Source: a virus
Taxonomy: Duplodnaviria > Heunggongvirae > Uroviricota > Caudoviricetes
DNA length: 19,102 nt
Direction: 5' to 3' (one strand)
Virus record (IMG/VR): IMGVR_UViG_2630968705_000015
A program made the translations under genes and the position numbers. How positions within the stretch are numbered: position 1 is the stretch's first letter; each line of letters begins with the position of its first letter. This document shows, piece by piece, positions 4,091 through 19,102 of the stretch. The notes under the pieces are model-generated. The model saw only the letters and a list, made by a program, of their open reading frames with translations, did not search any database and was not told the DNA's origin.

Positions 4091-4362
4091 GTATTCGTAT
4101 TGAAATTGGCGAACGTTATGTCGTTACCAGTGACAGCTTTCAGTTTATTCTCCACGAGAAAAAGAGAGCGGAAAGCGGTAAAAACGCCGGTCAGGAATGG
4201 CTGGCGGTGGTTGGTTATTACCCGAAATTAAGCCAGCTCGTTTCCGGCCTGATGCATCACGATATTCTGACCGGAAGCGCAAAGTCTTTTGCTGATTTAA
4301 ACGCGCAGGTTGAGCAACTCAGCAAGCGTTGTTCAGAGGCTTTTGGCTCATATGGCCGTTAA
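4087..4362 (+). CDS. Hypothetical early protein (91 aa)
   Basis: ATG at 4087 overlapping the upstream stop (ATGA), GGAG upstream. Last small ORF before A. Confidence 0.55.
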   Translation: MSIRIEIGERYVVTSDSFQFILHEKKRAESGKNAGQEWLAVVGYYPKLSQLVSGLMHHDILTGSAKSFADLNAQVEQLSKRCSEAFGSYGR

Positions 4363-6475
4363 AGCCTCCGGGCGTTTTGTCCCTCCGTCAGCATTTGCCG
4401 CAGGCACCGGTAAGACGTTTACCGGTGCTTACGCATGGAACGCGCCACGCGAGGCCGTCGGGCGCGAAAGACCCCTTACACGTGACGAGATGCGTCAGGT
4501 GCAAGGTGTTTTATCCACGATTAACCGCCTGCCTTACTTTTTGCGCTCGCTGTTTACTTCACGCTATGACTACATCCGGCGCAATAAAAGCCCGGTGCAC
4601 GGGTTTTATTTCCTCACATCCACTTTTCAGCGTCGTTTATGGCCGCGCATTGAGCGTGTGAATCAGCGCCATGAAATGAACACCGACGCGTCGTTACTGT
4701 TTCTGGCAGAGCGTGACCACTATGCGCGCCTGCCGGGAATGAATGACAAGGAGCTGAAAAAGTTTGCTGCCCGTATCTCATCGCAGCTTTTCATGATGTA
4801 TGAGGAACTCAGCGATGCCTGGGTGGATGCGCATGGCGAAAAAGAATCGCTGTTTACGGATGAGGCGCAGGCTCACCTCTATGGTCATGTTGCTGGCGCT
4901 GCACGTGCTTTCAATATTTCCCCTCTCTACTGGAAAAAATACCGTAAAGGGCAGATGACCACGAGGCAGGCATATTCTGCCATTGCCCGTCTGTTTAACG
5001 ATGAGTGGTGGACTCATCAGCTTAAAGGCCAGCGTATGCGCTGGCATGAGGCGTTACTGATTGCTGTCGGGGAGGTCAATAAAGACCGTTCTCCTTATGC
5101 CAGTAAACATGCCATTCGTGATGTGCGTGCACGCCGCCAGGCAAATCTGGAATTTCTTAAATCGTGTGATCTCGAAAACAGGGAAACCGGCGAGCGCATC
5201 GACCTTATCAGTAAGGTGATGGGCAGTATTTCTAATCCTGAAATTCGCCGGATGGAGCTGATGAACACCATTGCCGGTATTGAGCGTTATGCCGCAGCAG
5301 AGGGTGATGTGGGGATGTTTATCACGCTGACCGCGCCGTCAAAGTATCACCCGATACGTCAGGTCAGAAAAGGCGAAAGTAAAACCGTCCAGCTAAATCA
5401 CGGCTGGAACGATGAGGCATTTAATCCAAAGGATGCGCAGCGTTATCTCTGCCGTATCTGGAGCCTGATGCGCACGGCATTCAAGGATAATGATTTACAG
5501 GTCTACGGTTTGCGTGTCGTCGAGCCACACCACGACGGAACGCCGCACTGGCATATGATGCTTTTTTGTAATCCGCGCCAGCGTAACCAGATTATCGAAA
5601 TCATGCGTCGCTATGCGCTCAAAGAGGATGGCGACGAAAGAGGAGCCGCGCGAAACCGTTTTCAGGCAAAACACCTTAATCGGGGCGGTGCTGCGGGGTA
5701 TATCGCGAAATACATCTCAAAAAACATCGACGGCTATGCACTGGATGGTCAGCTCGATAACGATACCGGCAGACCTCTGAAAGATACTGCCGCGGCTGTT
5801 ACTGCATGGGCGTCAACGTGGCGCATCCCGCAATTTAAAACGGTTGGTCTGCCGACAATGGGGGCTTACCGTGAACTACGCAAATTGCCGCGCGGCGTCA
5901 GCATTGCTGATGAGTTTGACGAGCGCGTCGAGGCTGCACGCGCCGCCGCAGACAGTGGTGATTTTGCGCTGTATATCAGCGCGCAGGGTGGGGCAAATGT
6001 CCCGCGCGATTGTCAGACTGTCAGGGTCGCCCGTAGCCCGTCGGATGACGTTAACGAGTACGAGGAAGAAGTCGAGAGAGTGGTCGGCATTTACGCGCCG
6101 CATCTCGGCGCGCGTCATATTCATATCACCAGAACGACGGACTGGCGCATTGTGCCGAAAGTTCCGGTCGTTGAGCCTTTGACTTTAAAAAGCGGCATCG
6201 CCGCGCCTCGGAGTCCTGTCAATAACTGTGGAAAGCTCACTGGTGGTGATGCTTCGTTACTGGCTCCCACACCTTCTGAGCACGCCGCAGCAGTGCTTAA
6301 TCTGGTAGATGACGGTGTTATCGAATGGAATGACCCGGAGGTCTTGAAAGTGCTTAATCTGGCATTGAAAATAGAAGCATCACGTAAATGTACAAACAAA
6401 GGAGACACACGAGCAGGCATAGTTGGCGAGTCAACCGCGATTTTCAATGTACAGGATGCTGATAATCAACAATGA
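4352..6475 (+). CDS. A: Rolling-circle replication initiator (P2 A-like)
   Basis: HUH-type motif PHWHMM (about 5543-5560) and tyrosine motif GYIAKYISK (about 5697-5723), typical of RCR initiators. Start uncertain: track gives TTG 4310; first in-frame ATG is 4352, overlapping the upstream stop. Confidence 0.8.
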   Translation: MAVKASGRFVPPSAFAAGTGKTFTGAYAWNAPREAVGRERPLTRDEMRQVQGVLSTINRLPYFLRSLFTSRYDYIRRNKSPVHGFYFLTSTFQRRLWPRIERVNQRHEMNTDASLLFLAERDHYARLPGMNDKELKKFAARISSQLFMMYEELSDAWVDAHGEKESLFTDEAQAHLYGHVAGAARAFNISPLYWKKYRKGQMTTRQAYSAIARLFNDEWWTHQLKGQRMRWHEALLIAVGEVNKDRSPYASKHAIRDVRARRQANLEFLKSCDLENRETGERIDLISKVMGSISNPEIRRMELMNTIAGIERYAAAEGDVGMFITLTAPSKYHPIRQVRKGESKTVQLNHGWNDEAFNPKDAQRYLCRIWSLMRTAFKDNDLQVYGLRVVEPHHDGTPHWHMMLFCNPRQRNQIIEIMRRYALKEDGDERGAARNRFQAKHLNRGGAAGYIAKYISKNIDGYALDGQLDNDTGRPLKDTAAAVTAWASTWRIPQFKTVGLPTMGAYRELRKLPRGVSIADEFDERVEAARAAADSGDFALYISAQGGANVPRDCQTVRVARSPSDDVNEYEEEVERVVGIYAPHLGARHIHITRTTDWRIVPKVPVVEPLTLKSGIAAPRSPVNNCGKLTGGDASLLAPTPSEHAAAVLNLVDDGVIEWNDPEVLKVLNLALKIEASRKCTNKGDTRAGIVGESTAIFNVQDADNQQ

Positions 6476-6596
6476 TAGCTATTGTGACTATGCTAACCAT
6501 ATGAATCTATTGTGTGATTATGAGTAATGACTTTTTCTAATATTTGATTTTTAATGTAGTAACTTAGCTAATTTTAAAATTTGTAAAAGGATGTTT
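6476..6596 (+). promoter_or_regulatory. AT-rich intergenic region, presumed promoter of the SIR2/HerA cassette
   Basis: About 120 bp of very AT-rich DNA after the A stop, with several TTGnnn / TAnnnT hexamers (for example TTGATT 6544-6549, TAAAAT 6575-6580). No promoter could be assigned unambiguously. Confidence 0.3.
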
Positions 6597-7844
6597 ATGT
6601 CGATTTATCAAGGTGGTAACAAGTTAAATGAGGATGATTTTCGTTCTCACGTTTATTCCTTGTGTCAATTAGATAATGTTGGCGTTCTGTTAGGTGCTGG
6701 TGCTTCTGTCGGTTGTGGTGGGAAAACGATGAAAGATGTATGGAAATCGTTTAAGCAAAACTACCCTGAGCTTTTGGGAGCACTTATTGATAAATATCTT
6801 CTGGTTTCGCAAATTGATTCTGATAACAATTTGGTCAATGTTGAACTTTTGATAGATGAAGCAACTAAATTTCTTTCTGTAGCTAAAACTAGACGATGTG
6901 AAGATGAAGAGGAGGAATTCAGAAAGATATTAAGTTCATTATATAAAGAGGTTACGAAGGCTGCATTATTAACAGGAGAACAGTTTAGAGAGAAAAATCA
7001 GGGTAAAAAAGATGCGTTTAAATATCACAAAGAGTTAATTTCAAAATTAATTTCAAATAGACAGCCCGGTCAGTCGGCTCCGGCAATTTTTACAACAAAT
7101 TATGATTTGGCCTTAGAGTGGGCTGCAGAAGATTTAGGAATACAGTTGTTTAATGGTTTTTCTGGGCTACATACACGGCAGTTTTATCCCCAGAATTTTG
7201 ATTTGGCTTTCAGAAATGTAAATGCGAAGGGCGAAGCAAGATTCGGACATTATCATGCGTATCTCTATAAATTACATGGCTCACTTACGTGGTATCAAAA
7301 TGATAGCTTGACTGTTAACGAAGTTAGTGCATCTCAAGCATATGATGAATATATTAATGACATAATCAATAAAGATGACTTTTATCGCGGTCAACATTTG
7401 ATTTATCCAGGGGCGAATAAATATAGCCATACAATCGGCTTCGTTTATGGAGAGATGTTTAGACGTTTTGGGGAGTTTATTTCGAAACCTCAAACAGCGT
7501 TGTTCATAAATGGGTTTGGTTTCGGTGATTATCATATAAATAGAATAATATTAGGCGCGTTACTGAATCCATCTTTCCATGTTGTTATATATTATCCTGA
7601 ATTGAAAGAAGCAATTACCAAAGTAAGTAAGGGTGGCGGTTCGGAAGCTGAGAAAGCTATTGTTACTTTAAAAAATATGGCTTTCAATCAAGTAACTGTA
7701 GTTGGGGGAGGAAGCAAGGCATATTTTAATAGTTTCGTAGAACATCTACCATACCCTGTGCTCTTTCCACGAGATAATATTGTTGATGAGTTGGTTGAAG
7801 CAATTGCTAATCTTTCTAAAGGAGAAGGTAATGTCCCTTTTTAA
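6597..7844 (+). CDS. SIR2-like (sirtuin-family, predicted NAD+-hydrolysing) defence protein
   Basis: Motifs LLGAGAS (about 6694-6708), FTTNYD (about 7092-7106) and KLHGS (about 7273-7284) correspond to the GAGxS / TTNYD / HG signature of SIR2-like domains such as Thoeris ThsA. ATG at 6591 or 6597; 6597 has better spacing from the AAAAGG site. AT-rich. Confidence 0.8.
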   Translation: MSIYQGGNKLNEDDFRSHVYSLCQLDNVGVLLGAGASVGCGGKTMKDVWKSFKQNYPELLGALIDKYLLVSQIDSDNNLVNVELLIDEATKFLSVAKTRRCEDEEEEFRKILSSLYKEVTKAALLTGEQFREKNQGKKDAFKYHKELISKLISNRQPGQSAPAIFTTNYDLALEWAAEDLGIQLFNGFSGLHTRQFYPQNFDLAFRNVNAKGEARFGHYHAYLYKLHGSLTWYQNDSLTVNEVSASQAYDEYINDIINKDDFYRGQHLIYPGANKYSHTIGFVYGEMFRRFGEFISKPQTALFINGFGFGDYHINRIILGALLNPSFHVVIYYPELKEAITKVSKGGGSEAEKAIVTLKNMAFNQVTVVGGGSKAYFNSFVEHLPYPVLFPRDNIVDELVEAIANLSKGEGNVPF

Positions 7845-9663
7845 ACTTACTGAAATCTCGGCTATTGGATACGTTGTAGGATTAGAAGGGGAAAGAATTA
7901 GGATAAACCTGCATGAGGGGTTGCAAGGCAGATTAGCATCGCATAGAAAGGGGGTGAGCTCAGTAACGCAACCAGGAGATCTTATTGGGTTCGATGCAGG
8001 TAATATATTAGTTGTCGCAAGAGTGACAGATATGGCATTTGTTGAAGCGGATAAAGCGCATAAGGCAAATGTAGGCACATCTGATTTAGCTGATATACCT
8101 CTAAGACAAATTATCGCCTATGCAATTGGCTTTGTGAAAAGGGAGTTAAATGGTTATGTTTTTATATCAGAAGATTGGCGCTTACCTGCATTGGGTTCTT
8201 CTGCTGTTCCTTTGACTTCAGATTTTTTGAACATCATTTATAGTATTGATAAAGAAGAACTCCCAAAAGCGGTTGAATTAGGTGTGGATTCTCGAACTAA
8301 AACCGTTAAGATATTTGCAAGTGTTGATAAATTATTGTCGCGACACTTAGCCGTTCTTGGTAGTACAGGATATGGTAAATCAAATTTCAATGCTTTGTTA
8401 ACGAGGAAGGTTTCTGAAAAATACCCTAACTCAAGAATAGTTATTTTTGACATAAATGGTGAATACGCGCAAGCTTTTACAGGTATTCCAAATGTAAAGC
8501 ACACTATTCTAGGGGAATCCCCAAATGTTGATAGTTTGGAAAAAAAGCAGCAAAAGGGTGAGCTATATAGTGAAGAGTATTATTGTTATAAAAAGATACC
8601 ATATCAGGCATTAGGTTTTGCTGGGTTAATTAAATTATTAAGACCAAGTGATAAAACACAATTGCCCGCATTAAGAAATGCATTAAGTGCAATTAATCGG
8701 ACTCATTTTAAAAGCCGTAATATTTACTTGAAAAAAGATGATGGTGAAACTTTTCTTTTGTATGATGATTGTCGTGACACAAATCAAAGTAAATTGGCTG
8801 AGTGGTTGGATTTATTAAGGCGTAGACGTCTTAAAAGAACGAATGTATGGCCACCGTTTAAAAGTTTAGCGACTTTGGTTGCTGAATTTGGATGTGTAGC
8901 TGCTGACCGTTCTAATGGAAGTAAACGTGACGCGTTTGGTTTTAGTAACGTGTTGCCATTGGTAAAAATCATACAACAACTTGCAGAGGATATAAGATTT
9001 AAATCTATTGTTAATTTAAATGGAGGGGGTGAGCTAGCAGATGGTGGAACGCATTGGGATAAAGCTATGAGTGATGAAGTTGATTACTTCTTTGGTAAGG
9101 AAAAAGGACAAGAAAATGATTGGAATGTTCATATAGTTAATATGAAAAATTTGGCACAAGATCATGCTCCAATGTTACTTAGTGCATTGTTGGAGATGTT
9201 TGCTGAGATACTATTTAGACGTGGGCAGGAACGTTCGTATCCTACGGTACTTTTGTTGGAAGAAGCGCATCATTACCTGCGTGACCCTTATGCTGAAATT
9301 GACTCACAGATTAAAGCATATGAACGACTTGCTAAAGAAGGTAGGAAATTCAAATGCTCTTTAATTGTCAGTACTCAGCGACCCTCAGAGCTTTCTCCTA
9401 CTGTTTTGGCAATGTGTTCAAACTGGTTTTCGTTACGTTTGACTAATGAAAGAGATTTACAGGCTCTCAGATATGCAATGGAAAGCGGTAATGAACAAAT
9501 CTTAAAACAAATATCAGGTTTACCAAGAGGTGATGCTGTTGCATTTGGTTCTGCATTTAATTTGCCTGTAAGAATTTCAATTAATCAAGCAAGGCCAGGG
9601 CCAAAATCTTCAGATGCTGTTTTTTCTGAAGAATGGGCTAATTGTACAGAATTACGTTGTTAA
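7831..9663 (+). CDS. HerA/FtsK-like P-loop ATPase, partner of the SIR2-like protein
   Basis: Walker A GSTGYGKS (about 8359-8382), Walker B VLLLEEAHHY (about 9247-9276), STQRPSEL motif, and a roughly 175-aa N-terminal domain before the P-loop. Track start is TTG 7780; ATG 7831 follows an AAAGGAGAAGG site and overlaps the SIR2 stop by 14 nt. ATG 7783 is an alternative start. Confidence 0.8.
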   Translation: MSLFKLTEISAIGYVVGLEGERIRINLHEGLQGRLASHRKGVSSVTQPGDLIGFDAGNILVVARVTDMAFVEADKAHKANVGTSDLADIPLRQIIAYAIGFVKRELNGYVFISEDWRLPALGSSAVPLTSDFLNIIYSIDKEELPKAVELGVDSRTKTVKIFASVDKLLSRHLAVLGSTGYGKSNFNALLTRKVSEKYPNSRIVIFDINGEYAQAFTGIPNVKHTILGESPNVDSLEKKQQKGELYSEEYYCYKKIPYQALGFAGLIKLLRPSDKTQLPALRNALSAINRTHFKSRNIYLKKDDGETFLLYDDCRDTNQSKLAEWLDLLRRRRLKRTNVWPPFKSLATLVAEFGCVAADRSNGSKRDAFGFSNVLPLVKIIQQLAEDIRFKSIVNLNGGGELADGGTHWDKAMSDEVDYFFGKEKGQENDWNVHIVNMKNLAQDHAPMLLSALLEMFAEILFRRGQERSYPTVLLLEEAHHYLRDPYAEIDSQIKAYERLAKEGRKFKCSLIVSTQRPSELSPTVLAMCSNWFSLRLTNERDLQALRYAMESGNEQILKQISGLPRGDAVAFGSAFNLPVRISINQARPGPKSSDAVFSEEWANCTELRC

Positions 9664-9820
9664 TTACCTGATGTACATGGCTAGTGCAAGTTGGTAGCGC
9701 ATGTCTATATGCATTTATTTGCATGTGTTTTATTGAGTGAGCGCACAAGCTTGATGACCCGACAGGTATGTATTTAGACTGAATTTACACCTGCATTAAA
9801 ACCGCCCCACGAAGCGGGCG

Positions 9821-9839
9821 GGCGAGGCGGGGAAAGCAC
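9821..9839. other. cos cohesive-end sequence (P2-type 19-nt GC-rich site)
   Basis: GGCGAGGCGGGGAAAGCAC matches the P2 cohesive end as I recall it. Lies between the variable locus and the end of Q, as in P2. Confidence 0.65.
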
Positions 9840-9848
9840 TGCGCGCTG

Positions 9849-9953
9849 GCGGTGGTGCGGATTTTATTTTTTCAGCGTCTCAGCGCGTCGTGACGGCGCT
9901 TAGTCTGCCCGTTGAGGCGTTGGTGTGTCTGCGGGGTATTTTGTGCGGTGGTG
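9849..9953. repeat. Direct repeat GCGGTGGTG (9849-9857 and 9945-9953) in G-rich DNA flanking cos
   Basis: Read directly from the sequence. Possibly terminase-recognition elements; function inferred only. Confidence 0.3.
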
Positions 9954-9980
9954 AGCGTGTGAGGGGGTGATGACGGGGTG

Positions 9981-10003
9981 TAAAAAAGCCGCCCGCAGGC
10001 GGC
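9981..10003 (-). terminator. Rho-independent terminator after Q (minus strand)
   Basis: Minus-strand reading GCCGCC-TGCG-GGCGGC followed by TTTTTT, directly after the Q stop codon. Confidence 0.6.
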
Positions 10004-10008
10004 GATGT

Positions 10009-11043
10009 TCAGCCGTTGTCAGTGTCCAGTGAGTAGTTTTTAAATCGGATGACCTCCTGACCGAGCCAGCCGTTTATTTCGCGGATCCTGTCCTGTAACG
10101 GGATAAGCTCATTGCGGACAAAGACCTTTGCCACTTTCTCAATATCACCCAGCGACCCGACGTTCTCCGGCTTGCCCCCCATCAACTGAAAGGGGATGCG
10201 ATGCGCGTCCAGCAGGTCAGCGGCGCTGGCTTTTTTGATATTAAAAAAATCGTCCTTCGTTGCCACTTCACTGAGCGGGATAATTTTAATGCCGTCGGCT
10301 TTCCCCTGTGGGGCATAGAGAAACAGATTTTTAAAGTTATTGCGGCCTTTCGACTTAACCATGTTTTCGCGAAGCATTTCGATATCGTTGCGATCCTGCA
10401 CGGCATCGGTGACGTACATGATGTATCCGGCATGAGCGCCGTTTTCGTAATACTTGCGGCGGAACAGCGTGGCCGACTCATTCAGCCAGGCAGAGTTAAG
10501 GGCGCTGAGATATTCCGGCAGGCCGTACAGCTCCTGATTAATATCCGGCTCCAGCAGGTGAAACACGGAGCCGGGTGCGAAGGCTGTCGGCTCGTTGAAG
10601 GACGGCACCCACCAGTAAACATCCTCTTCCACACCACGGCGGGTATATTTTGCCGGTGAGGTTTCCAGTCTGATGACCTTACCGGTGGTGCTGTAACGCT
10701 TTTCCAGAAACGCATTACCGAACACCAGAAAATCCAGCACAAAGCGGCTGAAATCCTGTTGCGAAAGCCACGGATGCGGGATAAACGTTGAAGCCAGAAT
10801 ATTACGTTTGACGTAAATCGGTGAGCTGTGATGTACGGCAGCACGCAGGCTTTTTGCCAGACCGGTAAAGCTGATCGGCGGCTCATACCATCTGCCGTTA
10901 CTGATGCACTCGACGTAATCCAGAATGTCACGGCGGTCGAGTACCGGCACCGGCTCACCAAAGGTGAATGCCTCCATTTTCGGGGCGCTGGCGGTGATTG
11001 TTTTTGCCGCAGGTCGCGGTGTTTTCCCTTTTTTCTTGCTCAT
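10009..11043 (-). CDS. Q: Portal protein (P2 Q-like, 344 aa)
   Basis: ORF track. 344 aa as in P2 gpQ. Start overlaps the P stop by 1 nt. First structural gene after cos. Confidence 0.85.
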   Translation of the reverse strand: MSKKKGKTPRPAAKTITASAPKMEAFTFGEPVPVLDRRDILDYVECISNGRWYEPPISFTGLAKSLRAAVHHSSPIYVKRNILASTFIPHPWLSQQDFSRFVLDFLVFGNAFLEKRYSTTGKVIRLETSPAKYTRRGVEEDVYWWVPSFNEPTAFAPGSVFHLLEPDINQELYGLPEYLSALNSAWLNESATLFRRKYYENGAHAGYIMYVTDAVQDRNDIEMLRENMVKSKGRNNFKNLFLYAPQGKADGIKIIPLSEVATKDDFFNIKKASAADLLDAHRIPFQLMGGKPENVGSLGDIEKVAKVFVRNELIPLQDRIREINGWLGQEVIRFKNYSLDTDNG

Positions 11044-18314: not shown

Positions 18315-18744
18315 TGCCGTCACGGTACTGAAAACTAACCCCGATATGCTGCGGATATTCGTGGATAACGGGAGTATTGCCTCCACACTGGCGACGTCGC
18401 TGTCATTTGAAAAGCGTTACACGCTCAATGTCATTGTGACCGACTTTACCGGTGATTTTGACCTGCTCATCGTGCCGGTGCTGGCGTGGCTGCGGGAAAA
18501 TCAGCCCGACATCATGACCACCGACGAAGGCCAGAAAAAGGGCTTCACGTTTTATGCAGACATCAACAATGACAGCAGCTTTGATATCAGCATCAGCCTG
18601 ATGCTGACCGAGCGCACGCTGGTCAGTGAGGTGGGCGGCGCACTGCATGTGAAGAATATCCCGGAACCTCCGCCGCCGGAGCCGGTCACCCGCCCGATGG
18701 AGCTGTATATCAATGGCGAACTGGTGAGCAAGTGGGATGAATGA
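18277..18744 (+). CDS. R: Tail completion protein (P2 R-like, 155 aa)
   Basis: ORF track, ATG at 18277. 155 aa. Position after the lysis genes. Confidence 0.75.
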   Translation: MLKPDSLRRALTDAVTVLKTNPDMLRIFVDNGSIASTLATSLSFEKRYTLNVIVTDFTGDFDLLIVPVLAWLRENQPDIMTTDEGQKKGFTFYADINNDSSFDISISLMLTERTLVSEVGGALHVKNIPEPPPPEPVTRPMELYINGELVSKWDE

Positions 18745-19102
18745 GTTTAAGCGTTTTGAAGACCGGCTGACCGGACTGATTGAGTCGCTGTCACCGTCAG
18801 GGCGTCGGCGACTGAGTGCCGAACTGGCGAAACGTCTGCGGCAGAGTCAGCAGCGTCGGGTGATGGCGCAGAAAGCCCCGGACGGCACACCCTACGCGCC
18901 ACGTCAGCAGCAGAGCGTCAGAAAAAAGACCGGTCGTGTTAAGCGAAAAATGTTTGCGAAACTTATCACCAGTCGTTTTTTGCATATCCGCGCCAGCCCG
19001 GAGCAGGCATCAATGGAATTTTACGGCGGGAAGTCGCCGAAAATCGCCAGTGTGCATCAGTTCGGTCTGTCGGAAGAAACCCGTGCGTATTACCGTGAAG
19101 GA
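18737..19102 (+). CDS. S: Tail completion protein (P2 S-like), truncated by the window end
   Basis: ATG at 18737 overlapping the end of R. I translated it by hand: open frame MNEFKRFEDRLTGLIESLSP... runs to the window edge. Absent from the ORF track because it has no stop. Confidence 0.7.
   Translation, partial: MNEFKRFEDRLTGLIESLSPSGRRRLSAELAKRLRQSQQRRVMAQKAPDGTPYAPRQQQSVRKKTGRVKRKMFAKLITSRFLHIRASPEQASMEFYGGKSPKIASVHQFGLSEETRAYYREG

Follow-up and report, generated by a model that had tools for sequence, protein, structure and literature searches.

The window, by which we mean the whole 19,102-nucleotide stretch of DNA analysed here, carries two adjacent genes, sir2 and herA, read in the same direction within a P2-like prophage. 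The first, sir2 (6597..7844, + strand; RefSeq WP_021577683.1), is a real open reading frame of 415 codons plus a stop, with no internal stops in its translation, and encodes the 415-aa SIR2 NADase subunit of SIR2–HerA (Nezha). The second, herA (7831..9663, + strand), encodes a 610-aa HerA ATPase/helicase; the two reading frames share 14 nt where sir2 ends, and an AAGGAG lies upstream of the herA ATG at 7831. A SIR2–HerA system calls for an adjacent, co-oriented gene for a HerA/FtsK-type ATPase, and such a gene is found here.

The mechanical list of open reading frames starts sir2 at the ATG at 6591, two codons upstream of 6597. A Shine–Dalgarno-like AAGGA read from the sequence (6587..6591, + strand) lies 5 nt upstream of the ATG at 6597, and the RefSeq protein and the PDB constructs both begin MSIYQ, which corresponds to that same ATG. 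Given the AAGGA spacing, the RefSeq start and the PDB chains, we place the start of sir2 at 6597 rather than 6591, and the span 6597–7844 assigned to the gene in a first-pass annotation, made from the letters alone, is thus correct. A promoter scan of 6300–10100 returned sigma-70-like sites no more often than shuffled controls did, and upstream of sir2 no promoter-like site rose above chance; we therefore assign none. Hairpins resembling terminators were enriched, but these sit in the cos/portal region and not directly 3' of herA.

Prophage setting and the cargo island

The gene content surrounding the pair is that of a P2-like prophage, with integrase, C-type repressor, cox, B and gpA followed by Q, P, O, N, M, L, X, holin, lysin and lysB/C, and identity to E. 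coli APEC E19025 across the window reaches 99.995%. Homology to P2-like phages ends at 6347 and restarts at 9788, which sets the bounds of a 3440 bp cargo island holding sir2–herA (6348..9787, no strand assigned). The GC content of the island is 36.5%, compared with 47% in the left flank and 57% in the right. To the left lies gpA, the P2 replication gene A (4352..6475, + strand; Pfam Phage_GPA, 407.8 bits), the 3' end of which has been replaced at the island junction: its product matches P2-like gpA only as far as residue 675 (of 707), the junction has cost P2 gpA its final 90 codons, and RefSeq lists the gene as a pseudogene lacking its C-terminus. To the right lies gpQ, the P2 portal gene (10009..11043, – strand; Pfam Phage_portal; 'phage portal protein' in RefSeq). 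Other P2-like phages carry cdtABC, VbhT/Fic, DUF4238, or ParaMORC3 with Dcm at the same site. This is variable cargo between gene A and the portal gene Q, beside cos, and it places the island in the cos-adjacent gpA–gpQ defence hotspot of P2 that Rousset et al. 2022 reported (PMC9122126).

Of 5426 complete E. coli genomes, 20 hold the full island. A search of 50,697 phage records did not find it in any, and matched only its last ~200 bp (the cos region). The locus is a further instance of a rare defence that is carried by prophages and acts by NAD+ depletion. Searching the window from end to end for Rfam families and tRNAs gave no matches.

Just outside the window, the prophage of the matching genome is broken by an ISEc12 element, and this insertion, combined with the truncation of gpA, may mean that the prophage no longer replicates and has been domesticated, retained only for its defence cargo. 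The same observations could also be read as signs of a decaying remnant, a defective prophage whose defence genes have ceased to be expressed or to work in this strain; the annotation of gpA as a pseudogene without a C-terminus, the ISEc12 interruption and the lack of a promoter-like site above chance upstream of sir2 would all fit. Against decay, the open reading frames of sir2 and herA are both intact, and the SIR2 protein is identical across strains: relative to E. coli NCTC11129, which also carries accession WP_021577683.1, sir2 differs at three bases, all synonymous. HerA differs by a single residue, and synonymous-only change in sir2 together with one residue in HerA is the pattern expected under purifying selection. 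In addition, PMC11514289 reports that the NCTC 11129 system defends against lambda. We consider a decayed locus very unlikely.

Active-site motifs and the C-terminal third of SIR2

The first-pass annotation had proposed that three short strings, GAGAS, TTNYD and LHGS, form a catalytic signature, and all three are present. GAGAS (aa 33–37; 6693..6707, + strand) is the glycine-rich loop that follows the first Rossmann strand and binds NAD; it comes after a strand predicted at aa 27–32 in an AlphaFold2 model of SIR2 that we built on the protein's own homologue alignment (mean pLDDT 76.6). TTNYD (aa 166–170; 7092..7106, + strand) holds the catalytic Asn168 (nt 7098–7100) and Asp170 (nt 7104–7106), and LHGS (aa 226–229; 7272..7283, + strand) holds the catalytic His227 (nt 7275–7277). 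In an alignment of 25 homologues, taken from 1883 database matches and 38–87% identical to SIR2, the invariant positions include G33, G35 and S37 of the first motif, T166, N168, Y169 and D170 of the second, and H227, G228 and S229 of the third. Judged by these invariant columns, the three SIR2 motifs are not chance strings.

The motif residues also fall on the active sites of characterised relatives. In HMMER alignments, IFTTNYDL and LYKLHGS of the E. coli protein (EcSIR2) lie opposite IFTTNYDL and LWKLHGS of the Paenibacillus protein PsSIR2, and opposite IFTTNYDL and LYKIHGS of the S. aureus protein SaSir2. Counting from the printed alignment, N168, D170 and H227 correspond to N163, D165 and H212 of PsSIR2, which have been called putative catalytic residues (PMC11472057), while N168 and H227 correspond to N226 and H287 of SaSir2 (numbering checked), beside which density for ADPR has been seen (PMC11514289). 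By alignment to E. coli SIR2, N168 and H227 have been described as conserved NADase active-site residues, and immunity conferred by Vibrio cholerae Nezha is lost in either the N168A or the H227A mutant (PMC11559045).

The NAD loop, N168/D170 and H227 are all intact, and the prediction of an active NADase is supported. The opposite view is that SIR2 is a catalytically dead scaffold which organises or regulates HerA, with defence executed by the HerA nuclease/helicase. Some precedent exists for this, in that the E. coli complex is credited with ATPase, helicase and nuclease activities besides its NADase in PMC13434337 and PMC11559045, and the literature describes a type III E. coli subtype in which a HerA nickase is repressed by Sir2. 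A dead scaffold is nevertheless difficult to reconcile with NAD-binding and catalytic residues that are invariant across the 25 homologues, with the loss of immunity in the Ala mutants of the close V. cholerae homologue, or with the NADase activity that PMC11514289 reports for EcSir2–HerA. We regard it as extremely improbable, and the active NADase remains our reading.

The remainder of the protein is better described than had been thought. The first-pass annotation called the C-terminal third uncharacterised, an impression that probably arises where the match to Pfam SIR2_2 ends, near residue 320; in fact this region comprises the remaining Rossmann strands and a C-terminal helix described in the published work. 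The AlphaFold2 model predicts three more Rossmann strands among residues 280–383 (300–305, 327–332 and 366–370). The first of them is followed by the conserved Rossmann-fold motif GFGFGD (aa 306–311; 7512..7529, + strand), which aligns with GYGFPDEHIN of SaSir2, GYSYKDQHIN of PsSIR2 and GFSFTDPNLD of ThsA. Invariant residues are numerous here as well, comprising G306, F309, D311, H313, N315, R316, A321, L322, N324, P325, P334, T367, P385 and P387 in the 25 homologues. Beyond a low-confidence linker, a C-terminal helix is predicted at aa 395–408 (7779..7820, + strand), corresponding to an extension specific to the E. coli protein. This 'unique C-terminal extension' of EcSIR2, a difference from SaSir2 and PsSIR2, has been found to bridge neighbouring subunits and to stabilise the HerA N-terminus (PMC11472057), and assembly of the EcSir2 dodecamer has been ascribed to the C-terminal helix or extension (PMC11472057, PMC11514289). 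The related claim that SIR2 lacks an extra sensor domain is upheld, as all 415 residues match single-domain SIR2 models and structures.

Identity of the system and its proposed mechanism

Comparison with the PDB leaves little room for doubt about the protein itself. Over all 415 residues SIR2 is 100% identical to the chain in 8J4U/8SU9/8SUB/8SUW/8SXX/8UAE/8UAF, where it is named 'SIR2-like domain-containing protein'. These are cryo-EM structures released in 2023–24, some of them entitled 'HerA-Sir2 complex from Escherichia coli Nezha system', 'E. coli SIR2-HerA complex' or 'E. coli dodecamer SIR2'. The primary papers on this very protein are those of Shen et al. 2023 and Tang et al. 2023 (Mol Cell), and its biochemistry is cited here by way of later papers. 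Family models agree: SIR2 scores 630.1 bits over its full length against the PADLOC SIR2 model PDLC02186, and 507.2 bits against the NCBIfam equivalog SIR2_antiphage NF042942 (cut-off 500). In a search of known folds with the AlphaFold2 model, E. coli SIR2–HerA structures rank first (TM 0.85), followed by SaSir2 (8YHX), PsSIR2 (8W9L/8WLD), the SPARSA SIR2, KomC, ThsA (8BTO, 6LHX, 7UXT), DSR2 and the Avs5 SIR2. The source strain of EcSir2–HerA has been named as E. coli NCTC11129 (PMC11514289), the strain whose sir2 differs from ours only by synonymous bases.

Pfam gives a match to SIR2_2 (PF13289) at 40.3 bits, above the gathering threshold of 24.5, which spans aa 163–320 in the 415-aa numbering (165–322 in the 417-aa query) and by itself leaves both ends of the protein undescribed. 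This match also bears on whether SIR2 might be a conventional sirtuin, that is, an enzyme that uses NAD to deacylate or ADP-ribosylate a protein target instead of hydrolysing NAD+ in bulk. Like sirtuins, the protein described here has a Rossmann fold and pairs a catalytic Asn with a catalytic His, and SaSir2 has been said to resemble typical Sir2 proteins (PMC11514289). The canonical sirtuin deacylase family (Pfam SIR2, PF02146) is nonetheless not matched at E<=0.01, SIR2_2 being the sole match, and the nearest structures are all anti-phage NADases. Moreover, the ADPR in the SaSir2 active site is the product of hydrolysis (PMC11514289), and PMC11559045 reports that the system depletes NAD+. 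A conventional sirtuin is hardly conceivable on this evidence, and we rejected that assignment in favour of the anti-phage NADase.

The partner gene is equally recognisable. HerA is identical to PDB 8j4u_M at 609 of 610 residues, the sole difference being K301 here in place of E301, and scores 919.8 bits against the PADLOC HerA model PDLC02185. The Pfam DUF87/HerA central domain is matched at aa 174–307, and within it a pattern match identifies the Walker A motif GSTGYGKS (aa 177–184; 8359..8382, + strand); a Walker B-like VLLLEE was found by pattern match in the translation (aa 473–478; 9247..9264, + strand). Against NCBIfam HerA_antiphage NF042943, HerA scores 710.7 bits, under the curated equivalog cut-off of 800, and RefSeq consequently names the protein only 'ATP-binding protein'. 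That cut-off is conservative, since the HerA of the solved Nezha structure differs by one residue only. The natural E301K allele might alter the gating of the NADase by ATP or by assembly.

Thus the gene is almost certainly the sir2 of the two-gene SIR2–HerA ('Nezha') abortive-infection system, carried as cargo in the gpA–gpQ hotspot of a P2-like prophage, and the sequence holds nothing against this identification. Published structures and biochemistry suggest how the system would act. A two-layer ring of twelve SIR2 subunits would dock onto a HerA hexamer, giving the complex of 12 SIR2 and 6 HerA subunits named in PDB titles and in PMC11559045, with the C-terminal helix of SIR2 likely holding the dodecamer together and contacting the HerA N-terminus. 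HerA assembly would switch on hydrolysis of NAD+ to ADP-ribose and nicotinamide; PMC11514289 reports both the NADase of the EcSir2–HerA complex and its activation by HerA assembly. The same paper reports inhibition of the NADase in vitro by 0.5 mM ATP, a concentration below the physiological level, and PMC13434337 likewise describes an ATP-inhibited NADase. Sub-physiological ATP would in this way suffice to keep the NADase off, and ATP is also proposed to inhibit the helicase and nuclease. Infection would lower ATP and release these activities, leading to a collapse of NAD+ and a halt to phage replication. With no separate sensor domain in SIR2, sensing would pass through HerA and the ATP level. 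A drop of ATP in infected, Nezha-bearing cells is reported in the literature on the system, and phage protection by Nezha in MG1655 is reported in PMC13434337.

The SIR2–HerA system found here is already known in detail, and the locus adds no new mechanism. Its value lies mainly in calibration: a reading of raw DNA made with no tools correctly recognised an active SIR2 NADase and its ATPase partner, and that prediction matches the published structures and biochemistry of an identical protein. The prediction of an active NAD+ glycohydrolase paired with an ATPase is supported by later papers, which report NADase activity of that protein, and the mutants and the assays with and without the ATPase that had been suggested for checking it are already in print. 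Three more peripheral openings, namely an effect of E301K on gating, domestication of the prophage, and use of the locus as a route to the phage trigger of Nezha, are jointly an unlikely prospect; none of the matters they touch, the HerA allele, the gpA truncation or the trigger, concerns the SIR2 catalytic signature.

Relation to ThsA, DSR2 and other SIR2–HerA systems

The first-pass annotation had likened the order and spacing of the three motifs to those of ThsA. ThsA of type I Thoeris (6LHX, 8BTO) does share with SIR2 its fold class (Foldseek E 1.7e-05) and, in matching order, a GAGxS loop, a literal TTNYD and an HG motif. In the ThsA sequence used, which is identical to residues 3–282 of PDB 6LHX, these are GAGLS at 28–32, TTNYD at 110–114 with the catalytic Asn112, and HGD at 152; in the 8BTO chain, Ala replaces the Asn of TTNYD. 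While the order holds, the similar spacing is at best loosely true: from the G-motif to the Asn there are 135 residues in SIR2 and 84 in ThsA, and from the Asn to the His 59 and 40, the longer distances here being due to a larger small domain and beta-hairpin insert.

Outside the motifs, similarity to ThsA is insignificant by sequence. Although GAGAS aligns with FAGAGLS of ThsA 6LHX, only the GAGxS region aligned when the family alignment was compared with 6LHX by hhalign (probability 6.6%), and the family HMM, run against ThsA with every filter disabled, yielded just three short collinear islands (GAGxS, TTNYD and GFxFxD) with scores near zero. As the whole active site could not be superimposed on ThsA by sequence alone, we relied on the fold search and on the SaSir2 and PsSIR2 alignments. 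When the family alignment was used as a profile against the PDB, the three SIR2–HerA structures were all that it reached at E<=1, with no ThsA and no DSR2 among them. ThsA-type proteins have SIR2 fused to a C-terminal SLOG domain and a TIR-domain thsB as neighbour. Membership of this type was rejected, since the whole 415 aa form one SIR2 unit and the neighbouring genes are herA, gpA and the portal gene; the best 25 of 29 PADLOC matches do not include the ThsA model, all being SIR2 or Aga_SIR2. Regulation differs as well: according to the title of 8BTO and a published abstract, gcADPR (a cyclic-ADPR isomer) activates ThsA, which carries the SLOG domain as a sensor, through filament formation.

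DSR2 (8K98, 8WYA) has a SIR2 NADase domain with the same fold at its N-terminus. DSR2-type proteins are of ~1000 aa and combine this N-terminal SIR2 with a C-terminal sensor that binds the tail tube. We rejected membership here too, as SIR2 has 415 aa with no extra domain and the match is distant (TMq 0.40–0.43, 12–13% identity), a likeness shown at the level of fold. What links SIR2 to ThsA and DSR2 is the fold and the active-site motifs; they do not belong to one family.

Closer relatives are found among the SIR2–HerA systems themselves. The Nezha system of classical-biotype V. cholerae (strain A103) is of the same family and has the same active-site numbering, N168/H227, with Ala mutants of these residues abolishing defence, and Vibrio homologues are ~56–61% identical to SIR2 here; it differs in residing on a 25-kb genomic island beside Gabija rather than in a P2 prophage (PMC11559045). 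SaSir2–HerA (8YHX) and PsSIR2–HerA (8W9L, 8WLD) are likewise two-gene systems, sharing the TTNYD, HGS and G[FY]xFxD motifs and an NADase activated by HerA binding (PMC11472057, PMC11514289), but with only ~17–28% identity to SIR2 here. Their assembly also differs: SaSir2, which lacks the C-terminal helix, is a dimer when alone, whereas PsSIR2 passes from a 12-mer to a 14-mer upon HerA binding (PMC11472057, PMC11514289). With the E. coli SIR2–HerA/Nezha system represented by NCTC 11129 and the PDB entries, finally, the locus shares gene order, the 14-nt overlap and the location in the P2 gpA–gpQ hotspot, and it differs only in K301 for E301 of HerA and in the three synonymous bases of sir2.

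Composition and setting of the defence island

Across 6500-9500, within the cargo island that carries the SIR2-HerA (Nezha) pair, the GC skew of the coding strand is positive and unusually strong (0.21-0.24) and GC content is 35-38%; together, the two features point to a foreign, low-GC origin for the island. In other P2-like phages, the cargo at this hotspot between gpA and gpQ is of quite another kind (4618-6760 in L002, the Escherichia phage P2 from O157:H43 T22, and the phage matches H17, H22 and H23), where we found the cytolethal distending toxin genes cdtABC, a VbhT Fic-type AMP transferase, a DUF4238 protein, and ParaMORC3 together with Dcm.

Junctions of the island

The left junction lies inside the replication gene A (gpA, 4352-6475), in its 3' end at 6348-6475. 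By sequence comparison, homology to P2-like gpA extends only up to amino acid 675; the C-terminal 32 amino acids bear no relation to P2-like gpA, and the final 90 amino acids of the 765-aa P2-like protein are absent. RefSeq lists the gene as a pseudogene in E. coli APEC E19025, the genome matching this prophage, and in E. coli NCTC11129 alike. An exact 14-nt direct repeat, AGTGCTTAATCTGG, occurs at 6292-6305 and 6349-6362, its second copy beginning at the left breakpoint of P2-like phage homology. It could be microhomology left behind by the recombination event through which the cargo arrived, or it could be due to chance.

On the right, conserved P2 cos-region DNA starts again from 9788 (region 9788-10008). 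It contains GGCGAGGCGGGGAAAGCAC at 9821-9839, which we take to be the 19-nt cohesive end of P2, as well as three G+C-rich, terminator-like hairpins (9802-9821 on the minus strand, 9842-9859 on the plus strand and 9988-10003 on the minus strand).

Ends and integrity of the prophage

In the right end region (18737-19102), P2-like phage homology stops at 19083. The annotation of APEC E19025 shows a truncated virion-morphogenesis (tail completion) gene, and ISEc12, an IS21-family element, follows just past the end of the window (22338-23501 in the matching APEC E19025 locus); together these give a second indication of a defective prophage. At the opposite end, a 105-aa ORF (1-318; hypothetical protein WP_001353116.1), for which an NCBIfam search returned no match, has host yegS on one side and the prophage integrase on the other, and sits at or near the attachment junction.

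The HerA allele and its annotation

HerA (7831-9663) scores 710.7 bits against the NCBIfam model HerA_antiphage, below the curated cut-off of 800, and PGAP therefore names it just 'ATP-binding protein'. For an experimentally validated Nezha HerA, this sub-cut-off score reflects a gap in the annotation, not in the biology. Compared with the solved structure and NCTC11129, the sole protein difference across the two-gene system falls at HerA codon 301 (8731-8733), which encodes Lys301 here, whereas both of those carry Glu301.
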